Shown: positions 2,127 to 42,139 of the stretch, piece after piece
How positions within the stretch are numbered: position 1 is the stretch's first letter
Layout of the letters: each line of letters starts with the position of its first letter
Origin: Candidatus Omnitrophota bacterium
Lineage (GTDB): Bacteria; Omnitrophota; Gorgyraeia; 2-01-FULL-45-10
Assembly: GCA_026387175.1 (NCBI GenBank)
Contig: JAPLME010000006.1
Coordinates: forward strand, 44,078-108,077
Direction: 5' to 3'
DNA: 64,000 bases
The notes under the pieces: model-generated
Database searches by the model: none
What the model was told of the DNA's origin: nothing
What the model saw: only the letters and a program-made list of their open reading frames with translations
Position numbers and translations under genes: made by a program

Positions 2127-3347
2127 TTAAGTGCTGTACTCCGAATTTATCGCAACATACTCTTTGGAAAAATCACAGGTCCAGGCCTTTGCACCGGCCT
2201 TACCGCTCTTCAGATCGATCGTTATATAAACTTTCTTATCTTTAAAATATTTTCTTGCTTTCTCTTTTTCAAAAGTCTTGCAGATTGCACCGTTAGAAAG
2301 GGCTTTGACCGGCCCCAGATAGATATCCATCTTATCTATATCGAATTCAACCCCGCTTGCGCCCGCCGAGGCCACAACCCTGCCCCAGTTCGGGTCCGTA
2401 CCAAAGATCGCGCACTTCAGAAGATTTGAGGTCGATACTTTGCGCGCCACCTTCCTGGCGTCATCGACGGTCTTTGCGCCCTTCACCTCTATCTCGACAA
2501 ACTTCGTCGCGCCTTCGCCATCGGCGGCAAGCATCTTTGCCAGTTCCCCTGCCATATATTTCAGCGCTTCGGTAAATTTCTTGTAGCCTTTATCCTTGTT
2601 GGTGATCCTCTTATTTCCTGCCAGGCCGTTAGCCATTATAAAACAGGAGTCGTTCGTGCTCATGTCGCCGTCGGCGGATACCATATTGAACGAATTCGAT
2701 ATCGCTTCCTCGAGCGACTCCTCAAGCATCTTCTTCGATATGGAAACATCCGTAGCTATAAATGCGAGCATCGTCGCGTGCTTGGCGGTCTTCATCTCCG
2801 GATAGAGCATCCCCACGCCTTTACACGCGCCGCCTATCGTTACCACCGAATTGCCAAGTTTTACCTTAACGACAAACTCTTTCTTCTTCGTGTCCGTAGT
2901 CATTATGGTTTCGGCGAAGATGGAGCTATTCTTTTCCGATAGTCCTAGAGCAAGCTCCGGAAGCGCCTTAACGATCTTTCCTACCGGCAGTTTCACGCCG
3001 ATTATGCCCGTAGAGGCCACAAGGACCATACGCTTATCAAGGTCGAGCATCTTAGCAGTACTCGATGCCATAGCCAGAGCATCCTTTTTACCTGTCTTGC
3101 CGTTCGCGCAATTGGCGTTACCGCTATTAACGATTATCGCCTGATGGGTCTTGCCGCCGAGATGCGTCATGCTTATCTTCACTGGCGATGCTTTGCACCG
3201 ATTAGTCGTGAATGCGCCCGCCGCGACCGCAGGCACTTCAGAATATAGAAGCGCCAGGTCCTTCCTGCCCGAAAACTTGATCCCTGCTTTCACGCCGCTG
3301 GCCATAAACCCCTTGGCCGATGCCACTCCACCTTTAACTGTTATCAT
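2127..3347 (-). CDS. argJ: Bifunctional ornithine acetyltransferase / N-acetylglutamate synthase
   Basis: 406 aa; the ATMLAFIATD self-cleavage region (T of ATML) is typical of ArgJ. Adjacent to argC and argB. Confidence 0.85.
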   Translation of the reverse strand: MITVKGGVASAKGFMASGVKAGIKFSGRKDLALLYSEVPAVAAGAFTTNRCKASPVKISMTHLGGKTHQAIIVNSGNANCANGKTGKKDALAMASSTAKMLDLDKRMVLVASTGIIGVKLPVGKIVKALPELALGLSEKNSSIFAETIMTTDTKKKEFVVKVKLGNSVVTIGGACKGVGMLYPEMKTAKHATMLAFIATDVSISKKMLEESLEEAISNSFNMVSADGDMSTNDSCFIMANGLAGNKRITNKDKGYKKFTEALKYMAGELAKMLAADGEGATKFVEIEVKGAKTVDDARKVARKVSTSNLLKCAIFGTDPNWGRVVASAGASGVEFDIDKMDIYLGPVKALSNGAICKTFEKEKARKYFKDKKVYITIDLKSGKAGAKAWTCDFSKEYVAINSEYST

Positions 3348-3349
3348 CT

Positions 3350-4408
3350 CTACAGCAACCCTTCTGTTTCAGCAAACCCGCACATCAGGTTCATATTCTG
3401 GACGGCCTGGCCCGCGGCGCCCTTCACAAGGTTGTCGATACAGGATACGACTATCAACGTGGAGCCGGACACCTTCACTCCTATATCGCAGAAATTGGTG
3501 CCAACTACATCCCGGATCTGGGGAAGCTTGCCCGTATCGTAAACTCTCACGAAAGGTTTTCCCTTATAAAATGCCTTATAAATATCAACGGCTGCTTCGG
3601 TATCAAGGGGCTTCGTCAGTTTCAAATATATCGTCGAAAGTATGCCGCGGTTCATAGGAATGAGATGCGGCGTAAATACGATATCTATCTCTTCTCCCGC
3701 AACGCGTGAAAGTATGGTATTTATCTCGGGCTTATGCTGATGGTCATTGACCTTGTATGCTTTCAGGTTCTCATTGACCTCACAGAAAATGAGCCCGATG
3801 TCGGCTTTTCGCCCTGCGCCCGTAACACCGCTCTTTGAATCCGCTATCATATACGACCGATCGATCGCTTTCTCGGTAAGTATAGGCGCGATGCCCAATA
3901 TTACGCTCGTCGGATAGCATCCGGGATTTGCGAGAAGTTTTGCTTTCTTGATCCGATCGCAATAGAGTTCGGGAAGGCCGTAAACAGCCTGGGCGAGATT
4001 TGCGGTGTCTTTATGGGCAATGCCGTACCACTTCTCGTACACCTTCGGGTCCAGCCTATAATCGGCGCTCAGGTCCACGACAAGCTTTCCTGCCTTCAGG
4101 AAGGCCGGGGCTATCTCCATCGAAACTTTATGCGGCAGGCCTAAAAATACGAGATCGACGTTCTTCGCCATCCCTTGCGGGTCCGGTTTCTTACAGATGA
4201 CATCAAGCTTGCCTTTAAAGACAGGAAGAAGCGAGCTTATCGGCTCTTCCTTGTCGATTATAGCCGAAAGCTCCGTTATCTTCACGCCTTTGTGACGTAT
4301 CAGTATCTTAATAACTTCTTCGCCTGCGTATCCTGTAGCCCCAACCACTCCTACTTTAAGCATATTTATGTCCATCCTTATCTTAAATTCCCGACGAGGT
4401 TTATTCAT
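3350..4408 (-). CDS. argC: N-acetyl-gamma-glutamyl-phosphate reductase
   Basis: 352 aa; N-terminal GATGYAG Rossmann motif and the catalytic PGCYPT region. First gene of the argCJBD operon. Confidence 0.85.
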   Translation of the reverse strand: MNKPRREFKIRMDINMLKVGVVGATGYAGEEVIKILIRHKGVKITELSAIIDKEEPISSLLPVFKGKLDVICKKPDPQGMAKNVDLVFLGLPHKVSMEIAPAFLKAGKLVVDLSADYRLDPKVYEKWYGIAHKDTANLAQAVYGLPELYCDRIKKAKLLANPGCYPTSVILGIAPILTEKAIDRSYMIADSKSGVTGAGRKADIGLIFCEVNENLKAYKVNDHQHKPEINTILSRVAGEEIDIVFTPHLIPMNRGILSTIYLKLTKPLDTEAAVDIYKAFYKGKPFVRVYDTGKLPQIRDVVGTNFCDIGVKVSGSTLIVVSCIDNLVKGAAGQAVQNMNLMCGFAETEGLL

Positions 4409-5414: not shown

Positions 5415-7136
5415 TTAAACCGGGATGGATGCCTTAAGGAGCGTTTTCAGGTGAGCTTCTATATCTTTAACAGCGACTTCTGTAATAACGCCTGATTTCC
5501 GGTCCTTCACCTCTACGATCCCCTTCTTCGCGTTCTTCGCGCCTACCACTATTTTTATAGGTATACCGATAAGGTCCGCATCTTTGAATTTAACGCCCGC
5601 CGTTTCATTCCTGTCATCAAAAAGGGTCTCTACACCTGAGCCGGATAACCTATCATAAACGTCTTCAGCGACTTCTTTCACCTTCTTATCATCCATATTA
5701 AGGGCTATAATAATTGCCTGATACGGAGCTATCGATAAAGGCCATATGATCCCGTCCTTATCATTATTCGTCTCTATCACGCTGGCCAGTATTCTCGTAA
5801 CTCCTATCCCATAGCAGCCCATGATCGCCGGCAACTCTTTACCGTCTTTATCGAGTACCTTTGCGCCTAACACATCCGAATATTTTGTACCGAGCTTGAA
5901 CGTATGGCCGACCTCTATCGCCTGTTTTATTTCTATAGGCTTACCGCAGGCGGGGCATCCATCGTCCTTTGTTATCATCCTGAGATCCGCGAATTCTTTG
6001 GTCTCGAAATCGCGGCCGGTATTGACATTGATGAGATGGGTATCTTTTTTATTCGCGCCGGTAATAAAATTCGCCATCCCCTGAACGGTATTATCGGCAA
6101 TTATTCTTACGTTCCTCAAGCCCACCGGTCCGGAAAAACCGACCGGGGCATGCGTCACATCCTCTATGGTTTTTACATCCGCAAGCCCAAGCGTAGCGGC
6201 CTTTAGATAATTCTTAATCTTCGTCTCATTCGCTTCATGGCTGCCGCACAATAGTACCGCTATAGTGTTGCCGTCCGCTTTATAGATGAGCGTCTTCACC
6301 AGTTTTTCCGCGCCCACTCTGAGCAGTTCAGACACTTTCTCGATCGTGGTTATGCCGGGTGTGTCGACCTGGGCGATCGGCAGTGTCTTTTCTTTTGCCG
6401 CTCCCCCCTTTGTCTTGGATTTACATGCGGCGACTTCGGTGCTAGCGGAATATTTGCACTTCGAACAAACTACTATCCTGTCCTCTCCGGCTTCGGACGG
6501 CACCATAAATTCATGTGACATGCTCCCGCCCATCATCCCGGGATCGGCCTCGACAGGTATATAAGGAAGCGCGCATCTCTCGAATATCCTGCAGTACGCT
6601 TCGTACATCTTCTTATAGCTCTCTTCCAAGCCCGGTACATCGCAATCGAAAGAATAGGCATCCTTCATTATAAATTCCGAGGTCCTCATCACGCCGAAAC
6701 GGGGCCTGGGTTCATCCCTGAACTTTGTCTGGATCTGGTATAGTATAAGAGGAAGTTCCTTGTAGCTCCTTACATTGTTTGCCACGAGATCCGTCACTAT
6801 CTCCTCATGGGTGGGCCCGAGAAGGCATTCTTTGCCGTGCCTGTCCTTAAATTTTATAAGCACATCCCCGAGAAGATCATAACGGCCGGTCCTCTTCCAT
6901 ATCTCAGGCGGATGTATCGCCGGCAGGAGCACTTCCTGACTGCCTTTAGCGTCCATCTCTTCCCTGATGATCTTTTTTACTTTCTCAAGCACGCGAAATC
7001 CGAGCGGCAGATATGAATAGACTCCCGATACCAGTTTTCGTATGAACCCGCCGCGTACCATAAGTTTATGGCTTACCACCTCCGCATCCTGCGGATCTTC
7101 CTTAAGTGTCGGGATCAAGCTTTTAGACCATCTCAT
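5415..7136 (-). CDS. proS: Prolyl-tRNA synthetase (bacterial type with editing domain)
   Basis: 573 aa; N-terminal MRWSKSLIPTLKEDP...HKLMVRGGFIR and class II aaRS motifs. The length fits the bacterial INS-domain form. Confidence 0.85.
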   Translation of the reverse strand: MRWSKSLIPTLKEDPQDAEVVSHKLMVRGGFIRKLVSGVYSYLPLGFRVLEKVKKIIREEMDAKGSQEVLLPAIHPPEIWKRTGRYDLLGDVLIKFKDRHGKECLLGPTHEEIVTDLVANNVRSYKELPLILYQIQTKFRDEPRPRFGVMRTSEFIMKDAYSFDCDVPGLEESYKKMYEAYCRIFERCALPYIPVEADPGMMGGSMSHEFMVPSEAGEDRIVVCSKCKYSASTEVAACKSKTKGGAAKEKTLPIAQVDTPGITTIEKVSELLRVGAEKLVKTLIYKADGNTIAVLLCGSHEANETKIKNYLKAATLGLADVKTIEDVTHAPVGFSGPVGLRNVRIIADNTVQGMANFITGANKKDTHLINVNTGRDFETKEFADLRMITKDDGCPACGKPIEIKQAIEVGHTFKLGTKYSDVLGAKVLDKDGKELPAIMGCYGIGVTRILASVIETNNDKDGIIWPLSIAPYQAIIIALNMDDKKVKEVAEDVYDRLSGSGVETLFDDRNETAGVKFKDADLIGIPIKIVVGAKNAKKGIVEVKDRKSGVITEVAVKDIEAHLKTLLKASIPV

Positions 7137-8179
7137 ATTTTCTTCAATTCCTTCAATAGTTCCGCCGCAAAATCACTCTCTTTGACGCGCCTGACTATCC
7201 TGCCGTTAATAAATAATACGCCCGAACCCTTGCCTGCCGCTATGCCTATATCCGCTTCCCCGGCTTCACCGGGGCCGTTCACTTCACAGCCCATTACCGC
7301 AATCTTGATCGGACGCCTGGCTGATAGCTGATAGCTGATAGCTGATAGCTTGCGTTCGACATCCGCCACTATTTTCAACAGATTGACCTGACATCGGCCG
7401 CATGTCGGACATGATATTATCTCAGGCCCGAAGTTTCTCAAATTTAAAGCGCTTAAAATTCTCTTCGCCGCGCTAACCTCTTCTACGGGATCGGCCGTTA
7501 AAGATACCCTGATAGTATCGCCTATACCGTCCAATAGAAGTGCCCCTATCCCGATCGATGATTTAATTATTCCGGCTTCATGCGGACCCGCCGCAGTAAC
7601 ACCAAGATGCAGAGGATAGTCGCAAGCCCCCGATATCTTTCTGTAAGATTCCACCGTCGAGATAACATCGGAAGCTTTAAGAGATACGATTATATCATGA
7701 AAATCCAGTTCTTCAAGGATTTTAATATACCTCTTCGCCGCACTGACGAGCGCATCGGGCGATCCGGCGCCGGCAGAGCCTGAATTCACGCCTACCCTTA
7801 TGGGGATCCGCGCTCTCGAGGCGGCTCTAACTACCGCCGCTATCTCTTCTCTCTTTCTGATGTTGCCGGGATTGAGCCGAATCTTATCTGCGCCGGCCTT
7901 TATGCAGGCGAGCGCTAAGGTGTAATCGAAATGGATATCGCAGACAACAGGTATCTTTGCCTTATCCTTTATCGCCTTCACGGCAAACGCATCGTCAGAA
8001 TCCTTGATAGCGACTCTCACAATTTCGCAGCCGGCGGCCTCTAACCGCTTGATCTGGGCAACCGTTGCCTTCACATTCGCTGTCCTGGGCGTCGTCATCG
8101 ACTGGATCGAGATAGGCGCATCCTCGCCTATCCTCACCCCGCCGACCTTAACCTGTCTCGTTCGTCTGCGCTTTATCAT
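7133..8179 (-). CDS. ispG: 4-hydroxy-3-methylbut-2-enyl diphosphate synthase (GcpE)
   Basis: 348 aa; VGGVRIGEDAPISIQSMT TIM-barrel N-domain and a C-terminal CPTCGRC...GCEVNGPGE Fe-S domain. Confidence 0.85.
   Translation of the reverse strand: MIKRRRTRQVKVGGVRIGEDAPISIQSMTTPRTANVKATVAQIKRLEAAGCEIVRVAIKDSDDAFAVKAIKDKAKIPVVCDIHFDYTLALACIKAGADKIRLNPGNIRKREEIAAVVRAASRARIPIRVGVNSGSAGAGSPDALVSAAKRYIKILEELDFHDIIVSLKASDVISTVESYRKISGACDYPLHLGVTAAGPHEAGIIKSSIGIGALLLDGIGDTIRVSLTADPVEEVSAAKRILSALNLRNFGPEIISCPTCGRCQVNLLKIVADVERKLSAISYQLSARRPIKIAVMGCEVNGPGEAGEADIGIAAGKGSGVLFINGRIVRRVKESDFAAELLKELKKI
7320..7350. repeat. Tandem heptamer repeat (gctgata) x about 4.4 inside the ispG coding sequence
   Basis: Direct reading: gctgata gctgata gctgata gctgata gct. 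It encodes LSAISYQLSA in the IspG inter-domain region. Confidence 0.9.
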
Positions 8180-8249
8180 GATACATTATCCATGAATTTT
8201 TATTATCCTGTCTAGGCCTTACAGGTCGCTGTCCCAATCTCACTCTCTA

Positions 8250-8453
8250 CTCACCCCTCGCCAGAATATTTTTGGATTACTCAGCACACCCTTGCGTAGG
8301 GGTGTTGAGCGGGGCGTCGAAAGTCGCGAGCGGGCATGGATTTTTGGCCCGGGTATTCCTATCATGCCAAAAAGAGCGAGCGATCTTTCCGAGCGAAATT
8401 TCCTCGCAGGGGAAATTTCGCGTCCCCGCGAGGCACCCCTACGCAAGGGTGTG
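8250..8453. repeat. Copy A of a ~170-200 bp multi-hairpin intergenic repeat element
   Basis: About 85-90% identical to 24260-24460. Terminal 16-bp inverted repeat cccttgcgtaggggtg / cacccctacgcaaggg. Internal hairpins cgaaatttcc-tcgcagg-ggaaatttcg and ggcatgg...catgcc. It abuts the rseP stop codon at 8454. Confidence 0.85.
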
Positions 8454-9539
8454 TTAGCGGTGAAAAATTTTCGCTACCTTATCGAAGACTCCAAACTTCA
8501 TAATATCGTTATAGAATATGAATATCGTCAGCATGATTAGGAGGGTTACGCCGACATTGGCTATAGCCTCCTGCGCCTTAAGCGATAACGGCTTGCCGCG
8601 GAGTTTTTCGATCCCGAGAAACAGTATATGGCCGCCATCCAGTATAGGAAGCGGCAGAATATTGAATATGGCAAGCGACGCGCTCAATACGCCCATCAGA
8701 TGCAGTATGTAGATGAGCCCCATCTTCGCGGCCTGTCCGGTCACGACGAATATCCCTATAGGCCCTGTGAGCGATTCTTTTACGGAAAGCCTTCCTGTCA
8801 GGATCGACCAGAGGGCCTTATATGTAACGGCGGTCAGCTGCAGCAGTTTTCTCCCGCCCATATAGAGCGACCGGGTGAAGCCGTACTTTACGCTCTCGAT
8901 CGTCTGTGACGGCGTCACGCCGATCAGCGCAATGCTGACTTCAGCGCCGAAGATATCCTTGGCCTTACGCACGATAGGCGTTATCTCCTTGTCGAACGTC
9001 TTGCCTCCCCTGACTATCGTAAGCTTAATAGCGCTTTCGTCATGTTTATGTATAGCCTCGGTCATATCCTCCCAGTATTTCACTGCTTTTCCGTCGACCG
9101 CCTTAACTACGTCTCCGACGGCCAGGCCCTGCTTGGAGGCCGGATAATCCTTCATGAGCCCGCCGACCTCTGTAGTCATCGTGGGGCTCCCGAACATGAA
9201 TATCACCGAGAATATTAAGAACGCCAGGAAATAGTTTAATAGCGGACCCGCGAATATTATCTTAAACCGGTCTCCTATACTTCGCGACAGGAACTCCCAC
9301 TTCTCGCCGGCGAGCTTCTCCCACGGCTCGTCGCCGGCCATCTTGACATAACCGCCGAGAGGTATAGCCGATATCATATATTCGGTATCGCCTCTCTTTA
9401 CGGAAAATAGCTTAGAGCCGAATCCGAAAGAAAATTTCTGCACCCGCACTCCGAGACACTTTGCCGTTATGAAATGGCCCGCCTCATGCACAAGCACCAA
9501 TATGCTTAAGACGATTAAAAAAGATACTAACGATAGCAT
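8454..9539 (-). CDS. rseP: RIP zinc metalloprotease RseP (site-2 protease, PDZ-containing)
   Basis: HEAGHF zinc motif near the N-terminus, a PDZ-like region and a C-terminal LDGG motif. Start chosen at an internal Met (MLSLVSF) to limit overlap with dxr; the alternative start is 9566. Confidence 0.8.
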   Translation of the reverse strand: MLSLVSFLIVLSILVLVHEAGHFITAKCLGVRVQKFSFGFGSKLFSVKRGDTEYMISAIPLGGYVKMAGDEPWEKLAGEKWEFLSRSIGDRFKIIFAGPLLNYFLAFLIFSVIFMFGSPTMTTEVGGLMKDYPASKQGLAVGDVVKAVDGKAVKYWEDMTEAIHKHDESAIKLTIVRGGKTFDKEITPIVRKAKDIFGAEVSIALIGVTPSQTIESVKYGFTRSLYMGGRKLLQLTAVTYKALWSILTGRLSVKESLTGPIGIFVVTGQAAKMGLIYILHLMGVLSASLAIFNILPLPILDGGHILFLGIEKLRGKPLSLKAQEAIANVGVTLLIMLTIFIFYNDIMKFGVFDKVAKIFHR

Positions 9540-10675
9540 AATCTTCCGGTCTCCTCTCTCGCCCACGAGTCAGCATCCAAAACGTCTTTTACTGAAATGA
9601 CGTTTCTGACATTTCTATGCCTCGCCAGGACCTTTTCAATTATTTTTGGAATATCCGAGAATCCTATCTTTCCCTCTAAGTAATTCTTCACGGCTTCCTC
9701 GTCTGATGCGCACAGCACGGCCGGAGCCAGCGCGCCTGAGGCGGCAGAAGCCCTCGCAAGCGCCAGACAGGGAAACTTCTTTATATCGGGCCTGCGGAAT
9801 GTGAGCGCGCGGCATTTGAAAAAATCTATCCTATCCACTATCGCCTTCGAACGTTCAGGGAAAGTGAGGGCGTATTCTATCGGAAGCCTCATATCCGGCA
9901 CCCCGAGTTGCGCTATCACAGCCGCATCGGTGAACTCCACCATAGAATGCACTATCGCCTCAGGATGTATAAGCACCTCAATCAATTTTTCGCTTATATT
10001 GAACAAGTGCTTGGCCTCGATTATCTCGAGCCCTTTGTTCATCATCGTAGCGGAGTCCACTGTTATCTTCTTCCCCATCCTCCACCTGGGGTGCTTCAGA
10101 ATGTAATTAAGAGGAAGAGAATCGAACTTATCCCTTTTGACGTCCAGCAATGGCCCGCCTGAACCTGTAAGGTATATCCTGGAAACGTAATCGCTCTTGC
10201 CGTCGATGCATTGGAATATCGCGCTATGCTCGCTATCGATCGGTATTATTCTTACGCCCTTCTTCGCGGCCAGGGACATAACAAGCCCCCCGGCGCTAAC
10301 CAGAGCTTCTTTATTGGCGAGAGCGATCTCTTTTTGATTCTCTATCGCGTCGAGGAGCGGGACGAGGCATGCCGTGCCGCTTATGGCAAAGACGATAATA
10401 TCGACATCGCGCCTCGCAGCTATTTCCCGTAAACCCGGGAGCCCATAGACAATAGCGGTGGACGGAGGTAAAAGCCTATTTGCTTTGCGCGCCAGCGCCT
10501 CGCTTCCCACGGAAACTATTTTCGGCCGGAATACACGCGCCTGTTTGGCCAGGAGCTCTATGCTGGAATCTGCGCTAAGCGCCGTTACCTTAAACCTGCC
10601 GTTAAGGCGGGATATAACATCTAATGTATTAACACCGATGGAACCCGTGGAGCCTAATATCGCTATCTTCTTCAT
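9527..10675 (-). CDS. dxr: 1-deoxy-D-xylulose 5-phosphate reductoisomerase
   Basis: 382 aa; N-terminal ILGSTGSIG NADPH motif and conserved Dxr core. Sits in the dxr-cdsA-uppS cluster. Confidence 0.85.
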   Translation of the reverse strand: MKKIAILGSTGSIGVNTLDVISRLNGRFKVTALSADSSIELLAKQARVFRPKIVSVGSEALARKANRLLPPSTAIVYGLPGLREIAARRDVDIIVFAISGTACLVPLLDAIENQKEIALANKEALVSAGGLVMSLAAKKGVRIIPIDSEHSAIFQCIDGKSDYVSRIYLTGSGGPLLDVKRDKFDSLPLNYILKHPRWRMGKKITVDSATMMNKGLEIIEAKHLFNISEKLIEVLIHPEAIVHSMVEFTDAAVIAQLGVPDMRLPIEYALTFPERSKAIVDRIDFFKCRALTFRRPDIKKFPCLALARASAASGALAPAVLCASDEEAVKNYLEGKIGFSDIPKIIEKVLARHRNVRNVISVKDVLDADSWAREETGRLCYR

Positions 10676-22309: not shown

Positions 22310-23112
22310 TACTTCTTCGCCTCTTGTTTAAAGCTCGCATCAAAACCGCCCATTCCGCCCTCCGGCGATAGTATAAGCTTAGGTTTGCCGGAAAGCGTCA
22401 CTTTTTTATCGGTCTCAGAATAGCTTGCTCTTTGGCTGAATGTCGTGTTATCACCTCTTACTATCTTCACATTTCCATCCGCAATTATCTCCGTAAGCCT
22501 TCTTGTAGCGGGATCGAGATTAACCGTTATCTTGTCCGCGTCGATAGTTCCGTCTTCGCTCACAACCTTGACATTCTTAAGGAAGAACGCCTGGTTCTTC
22601 TCGTAATCAAACTGTACCTCGCCGTCGCAAGTTATCACGGTCTTCGATTTTTTAGGTTTTTCGCCTTTGGCGGCATCGGGCTTCTTATCCTTAGCTTGCC
22701 CGGCGCCTTCCACAAAGTCCCCCGTAAACCCTTTAGTCGCCAGGATGGTCGCATGCACATTCTTCTCAAGCATTACATTGTTCTTGTTCCTGTCGTAGAC
22801 GCCCTTATCGGCCGTGATGACGGCCTCCGATTCCTCGCCGTACGCCGATGCGATTATGTTATCCAGTTTGACCCTGTTCTCGGATATGGCCTCGGCTGAC
22901 TCCCCTTTCACATCCCACTTCTTAACGCCGCGCTCCGTCAGCCCTTCCAGGTTAAATGAAAGGACCTTATGGTTCACCGCGTCGCCCTGAGTCTTATCCG
23001 CAGCCTCCGGGGCCTTAGCCTCTTTCGCCTTCGGCTCTTCCTTATTGCCGCAGCCTCCTGTAAACAAAAATACGACCAGCAGCGCTACTGTGAGATTTCT
23101 CATATTATTCAT
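22309..23112 (-). CDS. LptA/LptC-family (OstA-like) lipoprotein
   Basis: Signal peptide with a lipobox (LFTGGC) followed by an OstA-like beta-jellyroll region. Start chosen at an internal Met adjacent to the upstream gene's stop; the ORF opens at 23196. Confidence 0.55.
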   Translation of the reverse strand: MNNMRNLTVALLVVFLFTGGCGNKEEPKAKEAKAPEAADKTQGDAVNHKVLSFNLEGLTERGVKKWDVKGESAEAISENRVKLDNIIASAYGEESEAVITADKGVYDRNKNNVMLEKNVHATILATKGFTGDFVEGAGQAKDKKPDAAKGEKPKKSKTVITCDGEVQFDYEKNQAFFLKNVKVVSEDGTIDADKITVNLDPATRRLTEIIADGNVKIVRGDNTTFSQRASYSETDKKVTLSGKPKLILSPEGGMGGFDASFKQEAKK

Positions 23113-23999
23113 TTTGGCCTCGTCTTCCATCTTCTGTGCATCCAGACCCATTGATCCGGATACTTTCTGATATAGGACTCCACAACGTCCGACCATCTTC
23201 TCGTATTGGTTAAAATATCCGCTTCCTTATCACCGGTATCCGTTATCTCGATCGGCTTATCTATCATCAAAGTATGATTGCCGTCTTCTCTTCTTATTAT
23301 GAACGCCGGTACAATGGCGGCTCCGCTGGCCATCGCCAGCGCGGCAGGCCCCACAGGCGTATAAGCCGGCTTGCCGAAGAAATCGACGAATACGCCCTCT
23401 ACCGAATCGACATCCTGGTCGGCAAGCATACCTATTATCCCGCCTGCCTTCAGAATTTTCAGTATCCCTCTCGGCGACTGATCGCGATAGATGACATTGA
23501 CATCGGTCAACTTGCGCAGGTAATTAAGATACCGGTCGTATTTATGAAAATAGAGGCGTCTGCCTACTACCGAGCCAGGGTACTCTTTAACCTTCATCGT
23601 AGCAGCGAGCAGCTCCCAGTTGCCGAAATGGGCGGTGAGCATGATAACGCCCTTGCCCCTTTTAAGCTCATCCTCCAATATGCCTATATTCTCTATGTGG
23701 ACAAGGTTGTCTATATTAGACTTATTGATCTTAGGGAAATTGACAAGCTCTGCTCCGGTCTTACCCAGATTCTCAAAGACTTTAATAGCGAGACGCTTTA
23801 TTTCGGCTTCGTCCTTTTCAGGAAAGGCAAACCTCAGATTAGCTATTGTCAGATTCCTGTATTTCCCTGCCAGCGCGAAACCGATCCTGCCCAGCCAGGC
23901 CGCTATTGCGGCAGCGGCCCTGATCGGCATTAAATAGAATATGAATACGAGGCATCTGCCCCAATAGTAGAGATAATACCTCCTGAACTTGAATTTCAT
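23109..23999 (-). CDS. LpxL/HtrB-family lipid A (Kdo2-lipid IVA) late acyltransferase
   Basis: 296 aa; N-terminal TM segment and an HFGNWE acyltransferase motif (HX4E-like). Confidence 0.7.
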   Translation of the reverse strand: MKFKFRRYYLYYWGRCLVFIFYLMPIRAAAAIAAWLGRIGFALAGKYRNLTIANLRFAFPEKDEAEIKRLAIKVFENLGKTGAELVNFPKINKSNIDNLVHIENIGILEDELKRGKGVIMLTAHFGNWELLAATMKVKEYPGSVVGRRLYFHKYDRYLNYLRKLTDVNVIYRDQSPRGILKILKAGGIIGMLADQDVDSVEGVFVDFFGKPAYTPVGPAALAMASGAAIVPAFIIRREDGNHTLMIDKPIEITDTGDKEADILTNTRRWSDVVESYIRKYPDQWVWMHRRWKTRPK

Positions 24000-24148
24000 A
24001 TACGCTAATCACTATATAATAGTAGGGCGGGTTTGTCAATCTCTTCGCTACGGCGAAAATATCTTATAAACATTTCAGTCCGGCGTTTACTTTCGGTCAA
24101 TGCTTCCGCTTGCCGCTCGCTCGGAATAGGCTTCCTCGCTCGCTGTTG

Positions 24149-24199
24149 ATAAAATTTCGATGATGAAGCCTGTACCGCCTATATGTATCGAAATTTTAT
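24149..24199. repeat. 13-bp perfect inverted repeat (ataaaatttcgat / atcgaaattttat) separated by 25 nt
   Basis: Direct reading of the long intergenic region between the lpxL-like gene and gap. Confidence 0.8.
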
Positions 24200-24259
24200 A
24201 AAGTCGCTCCAGCATCGCCCGAAAGTTCCGCCATCTGACATATCCATATAATATTTTCG

Positions 24260-24460
24260 CCTTCGCTCCCCGGAAGATTTTTCGGCTCGCTCAGCAGGCC
24301 CTTGCGGGGTGGGTGTTGAGCGGGGCGTCGAAAGTCGCGAGCGGGCACGGATTTTTGGTCCTGGTATGCTTGCATGCCAAAAAGAGCGAGCGACCTTTCC
24401 GAGCGAAATTTCCTCGCAGGGGAAATTTCGCGTCCCCGCGATGCACCCACCCCGCAAGGG
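24260..24460. repeat. Copy B of the multi-hairpin intergenic repeat element
   Basis: Matches 8250-8453. Terminal stem cccttgcggggtgggtg / cacccaccccgcaaggg differs from copy A, but the changes are mutually compensatory. The internal hairpins are conserved. Confidence 0.85.
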
Positions 24461-24489
24461 ACGGGTCAGGAAGGACCGAAAAATCTCAC

Positions 24490-24540
24490 CAATAAAACAG
24501 GCGCCCCTAGCTAATAAGCTGAGGGGCGCCGTCTTTTTTA
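24490..24540 (-). terminator. Rho-independent terminator downstream of gap (stem-loop flanked by T-rich runs on both strands)
   Basis: ggcgcccct-agctaataagctg-aggggcgcc stem-loop at 24500-24530. T-run gtctttttta on the plus strand and UGUUUUAUU on the minus transcript. Confidence 0.6.
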
Positions 24541-24554
24541 CACCGTACCTCTGT

Positions 24555-25667
<1,113 letters not shown>

Positions 25668-36313: not shown

Positions 36314-37387
36314 TTAAAATACTTTCGATTTCCGCTCTAAAAGCGTTAACAGGCTCTCCTTATCCGGGCCGACGATAACGTCCGCGCCGTGCAGGCTCTT
36401 TGTGATATTCAACAGCCTTCCGAAGGATCTATTATCCGTCAACAGGACCTCAACTTTCTTCTTCTTTTTACGCTTCAGTATCTTGTATATCGACGCAACG
36501 CCGAACAGCAAGGGGTTGACATCCACCCGCCTTATATCAAAATGATCGATGGTTACGGGCCAATTCAACCCTTTCTTCAGGAATATCATGATCTGATGCC
36601 CATGTCTCGCCACGCTTGTAGCGATCTCATCGGCCTTCTCATTGGACAACGGCCCGTCTATGAAATATCCTACCCTCACATGCCTTCCCCACCGCTCAAA
36701 AAATATTTTCTCGTTATCACTGAAGAGGTCTTTGTTATTCTTCAAAGTCCTGAAGCTCACATTTTCCTTATGATATACGTACGCCGCCTTGGCGCGTGCC
36801 GTCTTATAACCGAGTGCCTGCGCTCTCTTGCAGTAATCCGTATCGTCAAAGTATCCGACATGGTAGATCTCGTCGAGGAGGCCGACGCGCTTGATCGCTT
36901 CTTTGGTGACCAGCATGCAGAAACCGCGGCATGTGTAGAGTTCCTGTATCTGTCCTTTGAACCCCTTCAAGGTGAGAGCATACTCATCTATCGACCTTTC
37001 TCCCGGGAACTGCCCGGACGTATTACTCGACGGGTTCAATAGTCCGATGGACGGGTTCGCCTCAATAACGTCCACCATCTCTTCGAGCCAGCCGGATGCG
37101 GCGATCGTATCGTTATTCATGATGCACAGGTAAGGCGCGTCCGAAACGACCACGCCCTGGTTCACCGCCTTTACGAATCCTAGGTTCTTATCGTTCCGTA
37201 TCAATAGAAGGTCCAGGCCCTTATTCTCTTTAAGGCCCGAGAGATAGCTTTCGGTCGGGGCCTCGCTTCCGTTATCGATGACTATGAGCCTGTAAGGATA
37301 ATTCGTATTCTTCAATATCGAATCTATGCACTCGCGCGTCACTTCGAGCTGATTCCAGACGGGAATTATAATATCGCACTTACTCAT
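36314..37387 (-). CDS. GT2 glycosyltransferase (paralog family A, member 1)
   Basis: MSKCDIIIPVWNQL...IVIDNGS...MNNDT. Paralogous to 38933-39946, 39943-40992 and 40982-42139. Confidence 0.75.
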   Translation of the reverse strand: MSKCDIIIPVWNQLEVTRECIDSILKNTNYPYRLIVIDNGSEAPTESYLSGLKENKGLDLLLIRNDKNLGFVKAVNQGVVVSDAPYLCIMNNDTIAASGWLEEMVDVIEANPSIGLLNPSSNTSGQFPGERSIDEYALTLKGFKGQIQELYTCRGFCMLVTKEAIKRVGLLDEIYHVGYFDDTDYCKRAQALGYKTARAKAAYVYHKENVSFRTLKNNKDLFSDNEKIFFERWGRHVRVGYFIDGPLSNEKADEIATSVARHGHQIMIFLKKGLNWPVTIDHFDIRRVDVNPLLFGVASIYKILKRKKKKKVEVLLTDNRSFGRLLNITKSLHGADVIVGPDKESLLTLLERKSKVF

Positions 37388-38147
37388 CTTTCTTCACAAG
37401 CTCCCAGTACTTCGCCCATTTTAAAAAATTGATGAACGCGAACAGGATCCCGAAGATAAGCCCGTAAATGCCTTCTTTATACCCCTGTTTCTTCACATAA
37501 GACTTCCAGAATATTTTGAATGTCTTGTTCACAAGGGCCTTCTTTATCAGGCGCTCGCTTAATATGCCTTCAGTTTCGAGCATCTTTTTGGCCGCGATAC
37601 CGGCATACCTGTTCTGCCTTTGAACAAATTGATCGATCGAATCGAATGGATAATGATTTACATCAGCGTCGATCACGCCCATAGCGCCTTCATATACCGG
37701 CACCTCATGAACTTCACCTTTGTACTTAACATGTTTCCTATTAACCAGGTTGGGTATGTAATGATGGAACCCGCCATGGTCCATCGAGTGGCCTAAGAAG
37801 AAGTTTCTCCTCCTGAATTTATAAATTACTACATCTTCGTTTCCGGAGAGTGCCTTCTCCAGCTTCTTCCTGAAACTATCCGTAACGACGTCATCGGCGT
37901 CTATATGGAGAACCCAATCGTGCTTCGCATTATCGTTGCCTACATTCCGCTCATCGGCGAATGATCCGGAAAATTTATGATCGACTACGCGAGCGCCTAG
38001 CGACTTCGCTATCTCAATGGTCTTGTCCGTGCTGAAACCGTCAACCACGACTATATCATCCGCCCAGATGACGTTCTCAAGGCACTTGGCAATACGCTTC
38101 TCTTCGTTCTTAGTGATAATCGCTACAGTGATCTTAATCTTTTCCAT
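37380..38147 (-). CDS. GT2 glycosyltransferase (paralog family B, member 1; core-type WaaE/KdtX-like)
   Basis: VAIITKNEE...VVDGFSTD...DADD. Start set at MEKIKITV; the ORF opens at 38180. Confidence 0.7.
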   Translation of the reverse strand: MEKIKITVAIITKNEEKRIAKCLENVIWADDIVVVDGFSTDKTIEIAKSLGARVVDHKFSGSFADERNVGNDNAKHDWVLHIDADDVVTDSFRKKLEKALSGNEDVVIYKFRRRNFFLGHSMDHGGFHHYIPNLVNRKHVKYKGEVHEVPVYEGAMGVIDADVNHYPFDSIDQFVQRQNRYAGIAAKKMLETEGILSERLIKKALVNKTFKIFWKSYVKKQGYKEGIYGLIFGILFAFINFLKWAKYWELVKKDE

Positions 38148-38931
38148 GACAGCAGCAGCAACTCTCCTTCTTAGGTTCATTGTCGAGCATCTCTTTATAC
38201 TTCACGTAACTCATAAATTGATATAGCGCGCCCGCCCACGAAATAGTAAATCCCAGGAGGCCGTCTTTGAACCCGCCCTTCTGTACATACCCTTTCAGAA
38301 ATCGCGAGAGGCCTTTGCGGTACATCTTTATAAAATTAATATTACGGCGCTCCTTATACCACTTCTTTGCCTCGAGCGTTGTCTGGTTATTTATGCTTAC
38401 AAAGAAATCATGAAAATCCCTGTAAGAATAATGAATGATATCCTTCTTGAGATGGCCGCACGTGCCGTCGATAAATACCCTTGGGTGGACCTCCGCTTCC
38501 TCATATTTGAAGAAACGCTTATCGAAGAGCCTGACCTTCGCGGCAGGATACCAGCCGCTATGCCTTATCCACCTCTTACCCAGATATGACTTAATGGGTA
38601 TGGTATAGGCCTTATCTTTCATCTCGCCTTTCAATAGATTCGTAATCTCTTCGGCGAGCTCCGGAGTAACGCGCTCGTCCGCGTCCAGGCTGAGCACCCA
38701 ATTGTTCTTCGCGAGCGAGTAGGCGTAATTCCTGTGTTTGCCCTCTATGTCCATCTTACGGCTGAACACTTTGTCCGTAAACCCTTTGGCTATCTTCACG
38801 GTATCATCAGTGCTGGCATCGTCGAGGATTATGATCTCATCCGCCCATGACGCGCTCTCGAGACAGGCCGCTATGTTATCCTCTTCATTCTTCGTGATCA
38901 CTACAATTGAGACAGGCGCTTTACCGGGCAT
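38134..38931 (-). CDS. GT2 glycosyltransferase (paralog family B, member 2)
   Basis: VSIVVITKNEE...ILDDASTD...DADE. Paralog of 37380-38147. Confidence 0.7.
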   Translation of the reverse strand: MPGKAPVSIVVITKNEEDNIAACLESASWADEIIILDDASTDDTVKIAKGFTDKVFSRKMDIEGKHRNYAYSLAKNNWVLSLDADERVTPELAEEITNLLKGEMKDKAYTIPIKSYLGKRWIRHSGWYPAAKVRLFDKRFFKYEEAEVHPRVFIDGTCGHLKKDIIHYSYRDFHDFFVSINNQTTLEAKKWYKERRNINFIKMYRKGLSRFLKGYVQKGGFKDGLLGFTISWAGALYQFMSYVKYKEMLDNEPKKESCCCCHGKD

Positions 38932-38932
38932 C

Positions 38933-39946
38933 TTAATAGTACCTCACTTTCGCTTTATGGATAAATGAAAGGGCATCTAAAAACTTCCAGAATTTCTGGC
39001 CTCCTACGAATATCTCGCTGAAACGCTTCTTCTTCGTCAGTATCTTGAACGCCGTATTCATATAAAAATTATTCTTATCCGCCGTCACCATAGTTATATT
39101 GGAATGGACGGGCATCTTCACTTCGTCTTTAGCGAAGAACCATACCCAGTTACCGTCCCTGGCAAGCTTGATGGAATCCATCTCCAGCCTCTTCAGGATA
39201 TTGACGTCGTAAAGGTCGAGAATATAAGCGATCCTTTTGGGCTTGCCCCACCTGAACTCGAATATCTCTTTATTCCTGTTAAAATCTTCATCAAACGTCT
39301 TCACCTTTCCAAAGGAAGAGCTCTCCCTGTGATATACATATGCGCCGCATGCCCTGACGCACCTGTATCCTTCTTTGACGGCTTTACGCGAGAAGTCTGT
39401 ATCCTCGAAATTGCCCATCCCGTATATCTCGTCAAAGAGTCCTATCTTTCTTATTAACTCGCGTTTGATCAGCATGCAGAACCCTATCGCCGCGCCGAGT
39501 TCCACAGATCGGCCGGAAAGCCGCCTGATCTTTTCGGCATAGAGGTCCACCGGTTCCCCATCCGCCGGCTTCTGGCCCAGATTATTGCTCGACGGATTCA
39601 CTATCCCTATATCGGCCGAACTGTCGGCGACAGCTATCATCTCCTTTAGCCAGTCTTTTGTAACGATCGTATCGTTATTCAGAAGGCAGAGGAATGGGGC
39701 CTCCGAAGCGGTCATGCCCTGGTTAACGGCCCTCACAAAACCTAAATTTTCACTATTCCTGATCAGTCTAAGCGGCAGCTCGCCGGATGCCTTGAGGCCT
39801 TCGAGATAATTTACGGTCTCCTCGCCGCTTGCGTTATCTATTACAATGAGCCCGTATTCACCGGGCGTATTCTTCCTGATCGAATCTATGCAATCTTTCG
39901 TAAAAGAGAGCTGATTCCAGACCGGTATTATTATATCACACTTCAT
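38933..39946 (-). CDS. GT2 glycosyltransferase (paralog family A, member 2)
   Basis: MKCDIIIPVWNQLSFTKDCIDSI...IVIDNASGEET...LNNDT. Confidence 0.75.
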   Translation of the reverse strand: MKCDIIIPVWNQLSFTKDCIDSIRKNTPGEYGLIVIDNASGEETVNYLEGLKASGELPLRLIRNSENLGFVRAVNQGMTASEAPFLCLLNNDTIVTKDWLKEMIAVADSSADIGIVNPSSNNLGQKPADGEPVDLYAEKIRRLSGRSVELGAAIGFCMLIKRELIRKIGLFDEIYGMGNFEDTDFSRKAVKEGYRCVRACGAYVYHRESSSFGKVKTFDEDFNRNKEIFEFRWGKPKRIAYILDLYDVNILKRLEMDSIKLARDGNWVWFFAKDEVKMPVHSNITMVTADKNNFYMNTAFKILTKKKRFSEIFVGGQKFWKFLDALSFIHKAKVRYY

Positions 39947-40992
39947 CTCGTATCCTTAGCCGCCGAATCGGCTATTTGGCAGACTCTATCCGCCCCTCTT
40001 TCGACATCGACGCAATGCACCGCCGGGCAGTCTCCGGATAATTTCATGGCGACTCCGGGGTTGTCGACGAACACCAGGTTATAGCGCTTAGCCTCTTTTT
40101 TAATAGAATTTATAAATAAGGTAAGCGATAATAACGCTCCCGGAAAGATTTTCGGGAAGATCCTCTCCCTTATATTTATGTGCCGTATTCCCAGAGGTTC
40201 GGCCAAATTCCATAAATAGACTATGTGCTGCCGTCTTGCAAGAAGGAGAAGCACATCTTTAAGGCGCTCCTTGTCCAAAGTTTTCGTAACTATAAAGACT
40301 ATCCTGAGCCTCCTGCCCCATTTCGAATAAAATAACTGTTTATTCTTTTCGTGAAGCTCCCGCCGGGCTTTGTCTTTAAAAACGGTTGAAAATGTAGAAT
40401 CCCTAATGTGCTCGACCACTATGTCATTGGCGCGAATACACCGAAAATTAGCGCGTATAGCTCTGACCGAGAAATCGTCATCATCATAATATCCCAGGCC
40501 GTATGCCTCATCCAGGCCGCCTATCTTGTCGATGACCGCCCTCTTTATCAGAACGCAGTAGCCCCTGCAAAAATCTATCTCGATATAAGGATATCTTTCC
40601 GCAATAGCGGCGTTCTTGGTCTCAAAACGCGGGTTCACGAGCCCGGCGCCGGGGTTCGCTTCGACGGCCGCTATCAACTTATAGAGCCATCCGGGCGTTC
40701 TCACGACCGTATCATTGTTCATAATGCAGATATAAGGGCCCGACGACATATTTATTCCCTGGTTGACGGCCTTTACCCATCCGAGGTTTGTCCCGTTCCG
40801 TATAAGCACGGAATTTCTATTCGTCCTGACAAACTCTTCCAGACACTTTCTTGTCTCTTCGCCGCTCGCGTTATCGATCAGTATCAAATGATACGGCGTA
40901 TCGGAATTATTGACGATGCTCTCCAGACAGTTCTTTGTAAGCGCGGCCTCGTTGAATACCGGTATTATGATGTCGACCGTCCTATCTGCCAT
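39943..40992 (-). CDS. GT2 glycosyltransferase (paralog family A, member 3)
   Basis: VDIIIPVFNE...ILIDNASGEET...MNNDT. 4-nt overlap with the downstream paralog. Confidence 0.75.
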   Translation of the reverse strand: MADRTVDIIIPVFNEAALTKNCLESIVNNSDTPYHLILIDNASGEETRKCLEEFVRTNRNSVLIRNGTNLGWVKAVNQGINMSSGPYICIMNNDTVVRTPGWLYKLIAAVEANPGAGLVNPRFETKNAAIAERYPYIEIDFCRGYCVLIKRAVIDKIGGLDEAYGLGYYDDDDFSVRAIRANFRCIRANDIVVEHIRDSTFSTVFKDKARRELHEKNKQLFYSKWGRRLRIVFIVTKTLDKERLKDVLLLLARRQHIVYLWNLAEPLGIRHINIRERIFPKIFPGALLSLTLFINSIKKEAKRYNLVFVDNPGVAMKLSGDCPAVHCVDVERGADRVCQIADSAAKDTR

Positions 40993-42139
40993 CGCGTGTC
41001 TCTTTTACAGCCAAAGCGGTTTTTCGGCCTTCTTCCAGCCAATCGCACGCGCGTTTCAGCGAAGGCGGTTTTATTACAGACGATCCGGTCATTTTTGCTA
41101 TAGGATAAACAAGCCCGCCAGCCTTATCTTCGAAGGAGACTATAGCATCGAATCTCTTATCCTTCATACGTTTACGCAACCTCTCGATCATTTTCCCTGA
41201 GATTGTGAGATCGAATAATAACCGGGGGAGATTAAAATAGTCTATCCTTATATTCTGGTGCGGCGCAAGGCTCTTTTCCCTCATCGTCCCTTCTATTAAT
41301 TTTCTTATCGCGTCTTCGCCTTGCGCGGAATTGATCCATAGATGGACCCAGGACCATTCCCTGGCGAGGCCGTAGACATACTCTGTCAGCCCTGATATCT
41401 CGGCGCGATCGAGCGTATTGAGCGAGGATAAGACGCCTATGCGGAGATGCTTCCCCCACTTATCGTAATAAATCTTTTGGTTTCTCTTCACCCACTCTTC
41501 CCTGTTACCGGCCTTATCGAAGGAGGCATGAATGCGGTGGTAGACATAGGAGTCACGTATGGAGACAGACCTGTATCCCGCCTTATGGGCCCTTATCGAG
41601 TAATCTGTATCATCGTAGCCGCCTATGCCGAAAGCCTCATCCAGAACGCCTATCTTATCTATCAGCTCCCTTTTCACGAGCATACAGAAGCCCTGGCACT
41701 GGTTCATCTCCATATACTCGCCCTTATAGCGCTCGAGCGTCCGCGCATAAGCGTCGACTGAAGCATCGCTATGGCCGCCGCACTGGGGGTTTATAAGACC
41801 GACATCGGGATGGGTCTCGGCAAACTCCACCATACTCTCTAACCATCCGGGAGCCGGGATCGTATCATTGTTCATCATGCAAACGTAAGGAGCGCTGGAG
41901 ATCTTAAGTCCCTGGTTAACCGCCTTTATATATCCGGCGTTCCCCTTATTTCGTATAAGCACCGTCTTATCCGGGTTATCAGAGGCAAACTTGCGCAGGT
42001 ACTCTTCCGTATCTTTCTCGCTTGCGTTATCGATAAGAATAAGCCTGTAAGGATAGCGGGTATTTCGTAAGATATGCTCCAGGCAATCTTTGGTGAAAGA
42101 TAACTGGTTCCAGACAGGGATGATTATGTCGCACTTCAT
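40982..42139 (-). CDS. GT2 glycosyltransferase (paralog family A, member 4)
   Basis: MKCDIIIPVWNQLSFTKDCLEHI...ILIDNASEKDT...MNNDT. Confidence 0.75.
   Translation of the reverse strand: MKCDIIIPVWNQLSFTKDCLEHILRNTRYPYRLILIDNASEKDTEEYLRKFASDNPDKTVLIRNKGNAGYIKAVNQGLKISSAPYVCMMNNDTIPAPGWLESMVEFAETHPDVGLINPQCGGHSDASVDAYARTLERYKGEYMEMNQCQGFCMLVKRELIDKIGVLDEAFGIGGYDDTDYSIRAHKAGYRSVSIRDSYVYHRIHASFDKAGNREEWVKRNQKIYYDKWGKHLRIGVLSSLNTLDRAEISGLTEYVYGLAREWSWVHLWINSAQGEDAIRKLIEGTMREKSLAPHQNIRIDYFNLPRLLFDLTISGKMIERLRKRMKDKRFDAIVSFEDKAGGLVYPIAKMTGSSVIKPPSLKRACDWLEEGRKTALAVKETRDGR

Follow-up and report, generated by a model that had tools for sequence, protein, structure and literature searches.

In elements of the IS200/IS605 type, DNA hairpins are recognised in place of terminal sequence, no classical target duplication is formed, and insertion is replication-coupled and strand-specific, so that the orientation of the element becomes fixed relative to co-directional genes. 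The subject of the present work is a structured intergenic repeat, for which the family name E1 is used here; it is represented by two copies, A and B, in a 64-kb stretch of DNA from a Candidatus Omnitrophota bacterium (the window; 64,000 nucleotides of contig JAPLME010000006.1, positions 44,078 to 108,077 of the forward strand) and by relatives of these two copies elsewhere. In IS200/IS605 elements, two subterminal hairpins are present on one strand with a common orientation, whereas E1 is predicted to form a single long-range stem (P1) closing a three-way junction, and neither tnpA nor tnpB was seen near any copy in loci of a few kb. E1 also resembles the attC sites of integrons, which are recombined as folded single strands, in that the structure is kept while the sequence varies, and in its position after stop codons with an orientation locked to the upstream gene. 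The flanks of E1, however, are housekeeping genes in ordinary operons and not cassette arrays, and there is no integrase context. Identity with attC was rejected; attC has inverted core sites, RYYYAAC...GTTRRRY, at its two ends, whereas the single internal GTTGAGC of E1 is not located at the ends, has no inverted partner and is probably due to chance.

REPINs show compensatory changes across the arms of their hairpins, and the two arms may also each pair internally, which gives an alternative 'clover' fold (PMC3116915). E1 resembles them, as well as the BIME mosaics of E. coli, in being extragenic and dispersed with inverted arms that form a long hairpin. The P1 arms of E1 pair over 17-24 bp and each is a small imperfect palindrome that would permit a 'clover' fold; by inspection, most of the arms are themselves small palindromes, e.g. 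CCCTC-GCGGG-GAGGG. Further likenesses to REPINs are the compensatory arm changes (PMC3116915), the occurrence in mosaics with short motifs and the existence of single arms or remnants. The two differ in that the spacer of E1 is about 125 nt long, branched and more conserved than the arms, whereas in REPINs the arms are most conserved and the spacer is short. Furthermore, E1 possesses an additional outer 14-nt inverted repeat and a tail, and the host phylum is different. REPINs are REP doublets mobilised by RAYT (Y1 HUH) transposases, the single-copy gene of which is flanked by the repeats, and they number tens to hundreds per genome; no RAYT gene was present in the fetched loci (a few kb each; the carrier genomes were not scanned).

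The Correia elements (CREE) of Neisseria and the ERIC/IRU elements of enterobacteria are likewise intergenic, 100-200 bp long, bounded by terminal inverted repeats around a conserved core and co-transcribed with their neighbours. As RNA they form long hairpins open to cutting or binding by RNase III, and they can thereby alter the expression of adjacent genes (PMC2649163). Neither group has sequence similarity to E1; moreover, the ends of Correia elements are conserved in sequence and accompanied by TA duplications, whereas the main stem of E1 is variable and no duplication is definable. A near-uniform orientation, as found for E1, is not a known feature of the Correia or ERIC/IRU families. 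By analogy, E1 would appear to work most like a REPIN or a Correia/ERIC-type element, and it is filed as a member of neither. Two other identities were tried and rejected, i.e. an intrinsic terminator, because no U tract directly follows the E1 hairpin on either strand, and a ribozyme, group II intron domain V, retron, 6S RNA or Y RNA, for which there is no Rfam support and whose defining cores are missing from the junctions.

The Omnitrophota are uncultivated and poorly studied, and the literature appears to contain no account of repeat or non-coding RNA families from this phylum; no published description of E1 was found in the literature on Omnitrophota repeats and intergenic elements. As a structured repeat family, E1 is real and well supported; its sequence is new and its conservation pattern unusual, whereas its general kind is familiar.

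Copies, predicted fold and matched changes

Alignment of the segments 8250-8453 (copy A) and 24260-24460 (copy B) gave 87.8% identity over 196 nt (blastn E=4e-63), within the 85-90% estimated in an earlier note made from the sequence alone. A search of the 64 kb by nhmmer with --max returned only these two copies, and none was added in later loci either. Outside the window, about 15 more full or partial copies were found at unrelated loci of Candidatus Omnitrophota metagenome-assembled genomes (MAGs) and metagenomes, so that the family is not confined to the pair recognised earlier. Scanning one genome per species with 19-mers identified true copies in the Omnitrophota MAGs JAHJHP01 (at least five exact matches) and JAFGRN01 and in one MAG labelled Planctomycetia, mostly at contig ends, and scanning JGI metagenomes with 20-mers added seven copies. 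A profile of the best-conserved translated frame retrieved two hypothetical open reading frames among 5.8 billion proteins, leading to the diverged copies L031 and L032 (fetched loci are given L numbers). The 19-20-mer matches in Phenylobacterium, Levilactobacillus, a Verrucomicrobia MAG and others were rejected as chance, as the seed did not extend, and the corresponding loci (L008, L014, L017, L018, L020-L022, L029, L030) were discarded. Two scans of viral contigs with core patterns found no copy. The whole window had no Rfam match at the gathering score, and at permissive E-values the region 8150-8520 gave one chance partial match, of the hairpin P4 to a microRNA model (19.5 bits, 80 needed), in line with the earlier statement that no named family could be recognised.

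Most of the extra copies come from short-read metagenome assemblies, in which the arms of different copies may have been joined. Thus L011 and L024 have a common 5' flank and different 3' arms, and L009 and L025 have identical flanks with cores about 5% apart. Short-read contigs break inside E1, and six Logan contigs containing an rseP identical to that of the window all end within it, as expected of contigs that run into a repeat.

The consensus fold predicted for ten sequences (RNAalifold, alignment A3) comprises 59 pairs, with the closing stem P1 followed by an internal loop, the stem P2 and a three-way junction to P3 and P4. P1 is 17-24 bp long and varies in sequence among copies; the core is near-invariant across the 10 copies. 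The P1/P2 internal loop places UUGAG opposite CGARG, and P2 has the consensus GCGGGG/CCCCGC. In P3, an internal loop with GA opposite GA is accompanied by the unpaired GGGCAYGG, which is invariant, and by the helix UUUUUGGC/GCCAAAAA, and the tip is variable; P4 forms a hairpin of 11 bp. Most copies also have an outer 14-nt inverted repeat, GGAGATTTTTCGGC...GCCGAAAAATCTCC, 10-13 nt outside P1 (degenerate in A and absent in L032), which corresponds to the terminal inverted repeats expected of a MITE. A tail (in gene direction, GGGGTGAGTAGAGAGTGAGAYTGG) comes after E1 at the rseP locus in both the window and L035 and at the argJ locus in L040, and since it recurs at these loci it belongs to the dispersed unit. 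E1 is about 170-215 bp in length, and the unit of about 170-200 bp outlined earlier was too small, as the outer inverted repeats and the tail belong to it as well.

The core of copy A, from P1 to P1, covers 8285-8453 (169 nt; nhmmer E=5e-51) and abuts the rseP stop codon (TAA on the minus strand, 8454-8456), exactly where the segment had been placed before. On the plus strand, the 5' arm of P1, CACACCCTTGCGTAGGGGTG (8285-8304), pairs perfectly over 20 bp with the 3' arm, CACCCCTACGCAAGGGTGTG (8434-8453), and the 5' strand of P2, GCGGGG (8309-8314), pairs with CCCCGC (8424-8429). The P3 arm (8319-8389) includes GAAAGTCGCGAGC/GCGAGCGATCTTTC with its conserved internal loop of GA opposite GA, the unpaired and invariant GGGCAYGG (8332-8339), the helix TTTTTGGC/GCCAAAAA (8341-8348 with 8366-8373) and the variable tip. 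The P4 hairpin, GCGAAATTTCC-TCGCAGG-GGAAATTTCGC (8393-8421), is found both as an inverted repeat and in the consensus fold. The degenerate outer motif GAATATTTTTGG (8264-8275; consensus GGAGATTTTTCGGC) and the conserved tail (8231-8263; in gene direction, GGCGAGGGGTGAGTAGAGAGTGAGATTGGGAC) are given on the same strand. The full unit of copy B (AAGATTTTTCGGCT ... GACCGAAAAATCTC; nhmmer E=6e-56) extends from outer repeat to outer repeat over 24274-24487, the outer inverted repeats being located at 24274-24287 and 24474-24487. On the plus strand, its P1 arms CCCTTGCGGGGTGGGTG (24299-24315) and CACCCACCCCGCAAGGG (24444-24460) form a perfect 17-bp stem, and its P4 hairpin (24403-24431) has the same sequence as that of copy A.

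The perfect terminal inverted repeat claimed in the earlier note is therefore present in A and B, but not in all copies; P1 contains one or two mismatches or a bulge in L010, L024, L009, L023 and L031. Imperfect stems in the metagenome copies are uncertain because short-read arms can come from different copies, and some of these five may be assembly chimeras. With regard to the internal hairpins proposed at that time, GCGAAATTTCC-7-GGAAATTTCGC is conserved and covaries elsewhere, whereas ggcatgg...catgcc was not retained, the other copies supporting TTTTTGGC/GCCAAAAA.

Between the P1 arms of copy A (GCGTAGGGGTG/CACCCCTAC) and copy B (GCGGGGTGGGTG/CACCCACCCC) there are about three substitutions and one 1-nt indel, each mirrored on the opposite arm, and two base pairs farther out in P1 of copy A are flipped relative to B. 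Hand counting on the alignment demonstrated that differences between A and B are about four times denser in P1 (6 of 21 arm positions) than in the core (about 9 of 129); the spacer between the P1 arms is about 93% identical. These mirrored changes, already pointed out for the pair, extend to the whole family. In alignment A3, 20 of the 59 pairs were changed on both sides, compared with 4.7±1.6 in shuffles (none of 500 reached 20) and 0-4 in slid controls, and 96.6% of cells formed standard pairs, compared with 91.2% in shuffles and 35-58% in slid controls; the ten sequences being related, the cell counts overstate independent events, and the pair-level counts and the slid controls are safer. 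Since the double-sided changes far exceed both shuffles and slid controls, it is clear that matched changes across the stems maintain the fold, which is that of a single strand. P4, for example, reads GCG.../...CGC in the window and GCA.../...TGC in the JAHJHP type, with three further compensated pairs in L007, and five of its 12 pairs in copy A show double-sided changes in other copies. P2 of L023 reads GCAGGG/CCCTGC, and P1 of L032, GCCATTTCGGGCGGGATG/CATCCCGCCCGAGATGGC, is unrelated in sequence to that of A or B and still pairs (with one U-G).

Covariation shows a folded single strand, without telling RNA from DNA. Double-sided compensation had been taken in the earlier note as pointing to a structured small RNA or RNA regulatory element, or else to a MITE/REP-like element; on its own it does not argue for a small RNA, as mobile DNA hairpins (REPINs) show the same pattern (PMC3116915). 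Furthermore, template switching in replication can make matched changes without selection on RNA, and can create and maintain hairpins or perfect stems in few events (PMC8794818). The predicted RNA fold of copy A has an energy of -104.2 kcal/mol for the plus strand and -89.0 kcal/mol for the minus strand (z = -9.0 and -7.5 versus shuffled sequences), and the DNA fold -57.7 and -54.7 kcal/mol, respectively (z = -8.8 and -8.4); as DNA, the two strands fold equally well. Three tandem G-A motifs, in the P3 loop, in the P1/P2 loop and in P1 of L024 and L019, favour the plus strand, and read on the minus strand they become pyrimidine mismatches.

Filled and empty sites, orientation and nesting

Comparison of related loci demonstrated that E1 has been inserted between genes that are separated by 2 nt in relatives. 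In the window (3347-3350) and in L041, argC and argJ are 2 nt apart and the site is empty; it is filled in L023, the ArgC of which is 91% identical to that of the window, by an element starting at the stop codon, and in L040, where at least 454 nt of mosaic precede argJ. At the rseP/ispG site, occupied by copy A in the window, L039 (RseP 85% identical to that of the window) is empty, with stop and start 2 nt apart. The same site contains another palindrome with a 32-bp stem in L033/L034 (87%; from the MAG JAHJHP01, which has E1 elsewhere), an outer repeat and another hairpin module in L036 (84%), a different repeat family in L037 (84%), and a decayed E1 remnant in L035, the closest relative (92%). 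Presence/absence polymorphism among related genomes, as in MITEs, is thus seen at both sites. All of the nearest homologues of RseP and ArgJ carry the label Candidatus Omnitrophica/Omnitrophota and place the window in Candidatus Omnitrophota; its ArgJ is identical to one encoded on a 242-kb MAG contig at NCBI.

The remnant in L035 still has its P1 arm and outer repeat on the distal side, as well as the same tail, the core being decayed and broken by another element. Its distal arm is of the B type (CACCCACCCCTCAAGGGAC); if the remnant and copy A derive from one insertion, P1 of copy A has changed on both arms in place. The junctions of filled versus empty sites show the TA of the stop codon and a GAGAT-like sequence, and mosaic neighbours and broken contigs blur any duplication. 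The empty sites themselves (3345-3352 in the window and 2572-2580 in L039) resemble the end of the outer repeat (GAGAT), the argC/argJ empty site reading GTAGAGATGATAAC and the rseP end AAGATATTT, and in L035 the distal repeat is perfectly complementary, over 14 nt, to the final codons of rseP (GAAAATTTTTCGGC); the likeness may reflect a target preference, or chance. The stretch GAAAAATTTT at 8459-8470 was considered as an outer repeat overlapping rseP and rejected as native coding sequence merely resembling the repeat, because all RseP homologues, those from empty sites included, end with KIF[HRK][RH]. The rseP-ispG spacer of L033/L034 (4088-4180), with its perfect 32-bp inverted repeat (GGGGACGTGTCACTTTGGGACACTCCACTTT...) and 32-nt loop, is unrelated to E1, and this spacer seems to gather hairpin elements in different lineages.

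Among the 13 loci with identifiable neighbours, E1 is antisense to both flanking genes at at least 12 and sense at one, L012, where it is found downstream of recO (two-sided binomial probability about 0.003). In most loci the gene-proximal end is positioned 0-20 nt from the upstream stop codon; in L023 the stop codon is supplied by the outer repeat, and in L019 the reading frame crosses the outer repeat and stops against P1. The flanking genes are core housekeeping genes of ordinary operons, such as rseP, ispG, gap, lpxL, infB, argC, dxs and similar ones.

At least four other repeat families form mosaics with E1. In six copies (L013, L015, L019, L026, L027 and L028) the P3 tip harbours a nested palindrome of about 45 nt, CCTGCCTGCC-N16-GGCAGGCAGG, L031 has a 58-nt GC-rich palindromic insert between P3 and P4, and the copy in L027 is without the 5' half of the element. 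This modular, nested and locus-variable pattern matches the landscapes of BIME/REP, REPIN and MITE elements.

Mobile repeat or RNA module

We favour, with a probability of roughly 0.55, the explanation that E1 is a non-autonomous, dispersed and orientation-locked structured repeat of the REPIN/BIME/MITE kind within a single clade of Candidatus Omnitrophota; it appears closer to a genomic parasite of the REP/MITE type than to a dedicated RNA gene. A MITE/REP-like element with a constrained terminal hairpin was the second alternative of the earlier note, and it is the one that best fits the presence/absence polymorphism, the decayed remnant, the nesting and the outer repeats. The fold would then matter for the propagation of E1 itself. 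A strand-specific enzyme may recognise it in single-stranded nucleic acid, by analogy with REPIN/RAYT or IS200/IS605-type systems, and such an enzyme would explain both the orientation lock and the fact that P1 keeps its pairing and not its sequence. Strand-specific insertion would be expected to give such a lock, and so, to the same degree, would damage to host transcripts by elements in the reverse orientation. The mirrored differences clustered in P1 may have arisen in a few steps, one arm being copied from the other by template switching or arm-to-arm conversion, as opposed to many compensations; template switching would account for such clusters, indels included. Copies within operons are bound to be co-transcribed in the gene direction and would thus also introduce a long RNA duplex into host mRNAs, which could alter mRNA processing or stability as a side effect.

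Several observations weigh against a mobile repeat. No mobilising gene was found in the fetched loci (a few kb each; whole carrier genomes were not scanned for one), and in the loci examined the outer repeat occurs only with E1, with no autonomous parent (public collections were not searched for one). There is no clear target-site duplication at argC/argJ or rseP/ispG, where the neighbours are mosaic and the contigs broken. Just two copies are present within 64 kb, and the copies from short-read metagenomes may be chimeric. If copy A shares its insertion with L035, its change in place needs selection or arm-to-arm conversion, and not copying-stage selection alone. The non-canonical pairs (tandem G-A, and U-G at the P1/P2 junction) favour the plus strand, whereas host transcription yields minus-strand RNA. 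Finally, in contrast to REPINs and most MITEs, E1 shows stronger conservation of the interior, with GGGCAYGG and the GA-opposite-GA loop, than of the arms, and a conserved unpaired interior is also the pattern of a functional structured RNA.

The alternative that survives best, possible although rather unlikely in our view, is a cis-acting RNA module in host mRNAs, i.e. an RNase III-type processing site, a barrier to 3'-exonucleases or a cistron decoupler, with the wrong orientation being selected against. Such a module would be in agreement with the strict orientation relative to the flanking genes and with the conservation of unpaired core nucleotides, and P1 retains pairing and not sequence, as would be the case for a double-stranded RNA signal. 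E1 is sited at or next to stop codons, and in operons with empty spacers of 2 nt co-transcription is unavoidable. Some hairpin element is found in the rseP-ispG spacer of several relatives, and a precedent exists in the Correia elements of Neisseria, where RNase III acts on co-transcribed repeat hairpins (PMC2649163). Copy B, however, lies after the canonical terminator of gap and before a promoter-like site, and may be poorly transcribed. Neither the decayed core at the rseP locus of L035, the closest relative, nor the lack of the element in L039 would be expected of such a module, the flanking genes have no function in common, and the gene-direction strand has the weaker RNA fold (-89 versus -104 kcal/mol), with pyrimidine mismatches in place of the tandem G-A. 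A somewhat more doubtful suggestion is that E1 is not merely selfish, but represents a new structured module class of the Omnitrophota, the conserved three-way-junction core of which, with its invariant unpaired GGGCAYGG and tandem G-A motifs behind a closing stem that evolves fast and yet stays perfectly paired, might be bound by a specific partner protein as an RNA signal or as single-stranded DNA. With such a partner protein, the RNA form could, just as tentatively, be a portable processing or stability signal in operon transcripts, and the DNA form a substrate for a mobilisation enzyme of a type so far not associated with branched substrates of this sort.

A stand-alone small RNA gene family, expressed from the plus strand of the window and antisense to the flanking genes, is improbable. 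The plus strand does have the stronger RNA fold (-104.2 and -101.1 versus -89.0 and -85.2 kcal/mol), the tandem G-A and U-G pairs render P1-P2 almost continuous on this strand only, and conserved loops combined with covarying stems are typical of functional RNAs. The non-canonical cells in the plus-strand reading, 19 G-U versus 6 A-C, seem to point the same way; ten of the 19 G-U cells, however, sit in two inherited junction columns common to most copies, the numbers counted by columns being 8 versus 5, and the wobble count therefore does not decide the strand. Furthermore, neither a conserved promoter upstream nor a terminator downstream was found on the plus strand, no Rfam family matched, and multiple copies, presence/absence, nested insertions and a decayed orthologue would be unusual for small RNA genes.

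A one-off segmental duplication or chance resemblance with only apparent compensation would suit the two copies in the 64-kb window, but it can practically be dismissed in view of the about 15 other copies at unrelated loci in several genomes and samples, the blastn E=4e-63 between A and B, and covariation far above the controls. Just as little credence can be given to a small protein-coding gene, for although open reading frames of 60-90 codons span the element and all six frames are largely stop-free, the latter reflects base composition and not coding, several 1-nt indels between A and B shift every frame, the changes track stem partners and not codon position, and the profile of the best-conserved frame found just the two hypothetical open reading frames mentioned above.

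It is evident from the family that the compact operons of the Omnitrophota tolerate, or use, structured inserts of about 200-300 bp placed exactly between translationally coupled genes. The family also offers a clean natural case of 'compensatory' stem evolution, in which P1 diverges four times faster than the core and stays paired, the candidate causes of this paired divergence being selection on RNA, selection on a transposition intermediate and arm-to-arm copying. In practical terms, E1 breaks short-read assemblies, could pass for a small RNA or for small open reading frames, and is usable as a lineage marker.

Gene setting and neighbouring repeats

The genes adjoining copies A and B are all located on the minus strand. 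Copy A is positioned between rseP (8454-9566) and ispG (7133-8179), in the run dxr-rseP-ispG-proS, and in the gene direction its first base is the base after the rseP stop codon. Copy B is positioned between gap (24555-25658) and an lpxL-type acyltransferase gene (23109-23999); it had earlier been described as upstream of gap, but with gap on the minus strand it is actually downstream. In the gene direction, copy B starts about 12 nt past the terminator hairpin of gap (24500-24531) and is followed by a second inverted-repeat element (24047-24266) and then by a promoter-like TTGACA-17-TATAGT before the acyltransferase gene. The gap hairpin, GGCGCCCCT-N13-AGGGGCGCC at 24500-24540, has T-rich runs on both strands and resembles a bidirectional intrinsic terminator; it was missed by the terminator scan because its loop is longer than 8 nt. 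The same kind of scan gave no terminator-like site in 7900-8800, and no T run is found after P1 on either strand in A or B. The promoter and terminator scans revealed no signals owned by the element and none framing E1 as a separate gene.

The second repeat family, which adjoins copy B at 24047-24266, has the ends GGCGAAAATAT...ATATTTTCGCC, with 32-nt inverted arms in the window. It was also found in L015, L013, L027, L032, L035, L037 and L040, and a homologous interior stands beside E1 in L032. A third family, absent from the window, is MITE-like, about 250-350 nt long, with terminal inverted repeats of about 37 nt (GACCTAAGYCGAAGYAATATGAGCACATTGAAAATAT...), and is often located beside E1; it was seen in L013 (about 225-505), L024, L016, L012 and L040 (about 95-400), and as a solo end in L009 and L010. 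The palindrome CCTGCCTGCC-N16-GGCAGGCAGG, likewise absent from the window, also occurs free-standing in L015 and behaves as a small mobile hairpin of its own, within which assemblies break. A hairpin module ...CAGTCAGGCGTYTACTTTYGG...CCTTCGCTTG... is positioned between the outer repeat and P1 in L023 (about 170-215) and after the outer repeat behind rseP in L036 (3608-3660) and L035 (2385-2425), a similar stretch being present in the window at about 24080-24125. Downstream of E1 in L007 (about 250-480) there are recurrent GC-rich units of the pattern GGCGGGAT...CCCGCC, which also compose the 58-nt insert of L031 (6085-6140); they may represent another small REP-like family. The direct-repeat families D1-D5 in the window (36314-42139) are unrelated to E1 and correspond to a row of four paralogous genes for family-2 glycosyltransferases, after which comes a B12-binding radical SAM gene.

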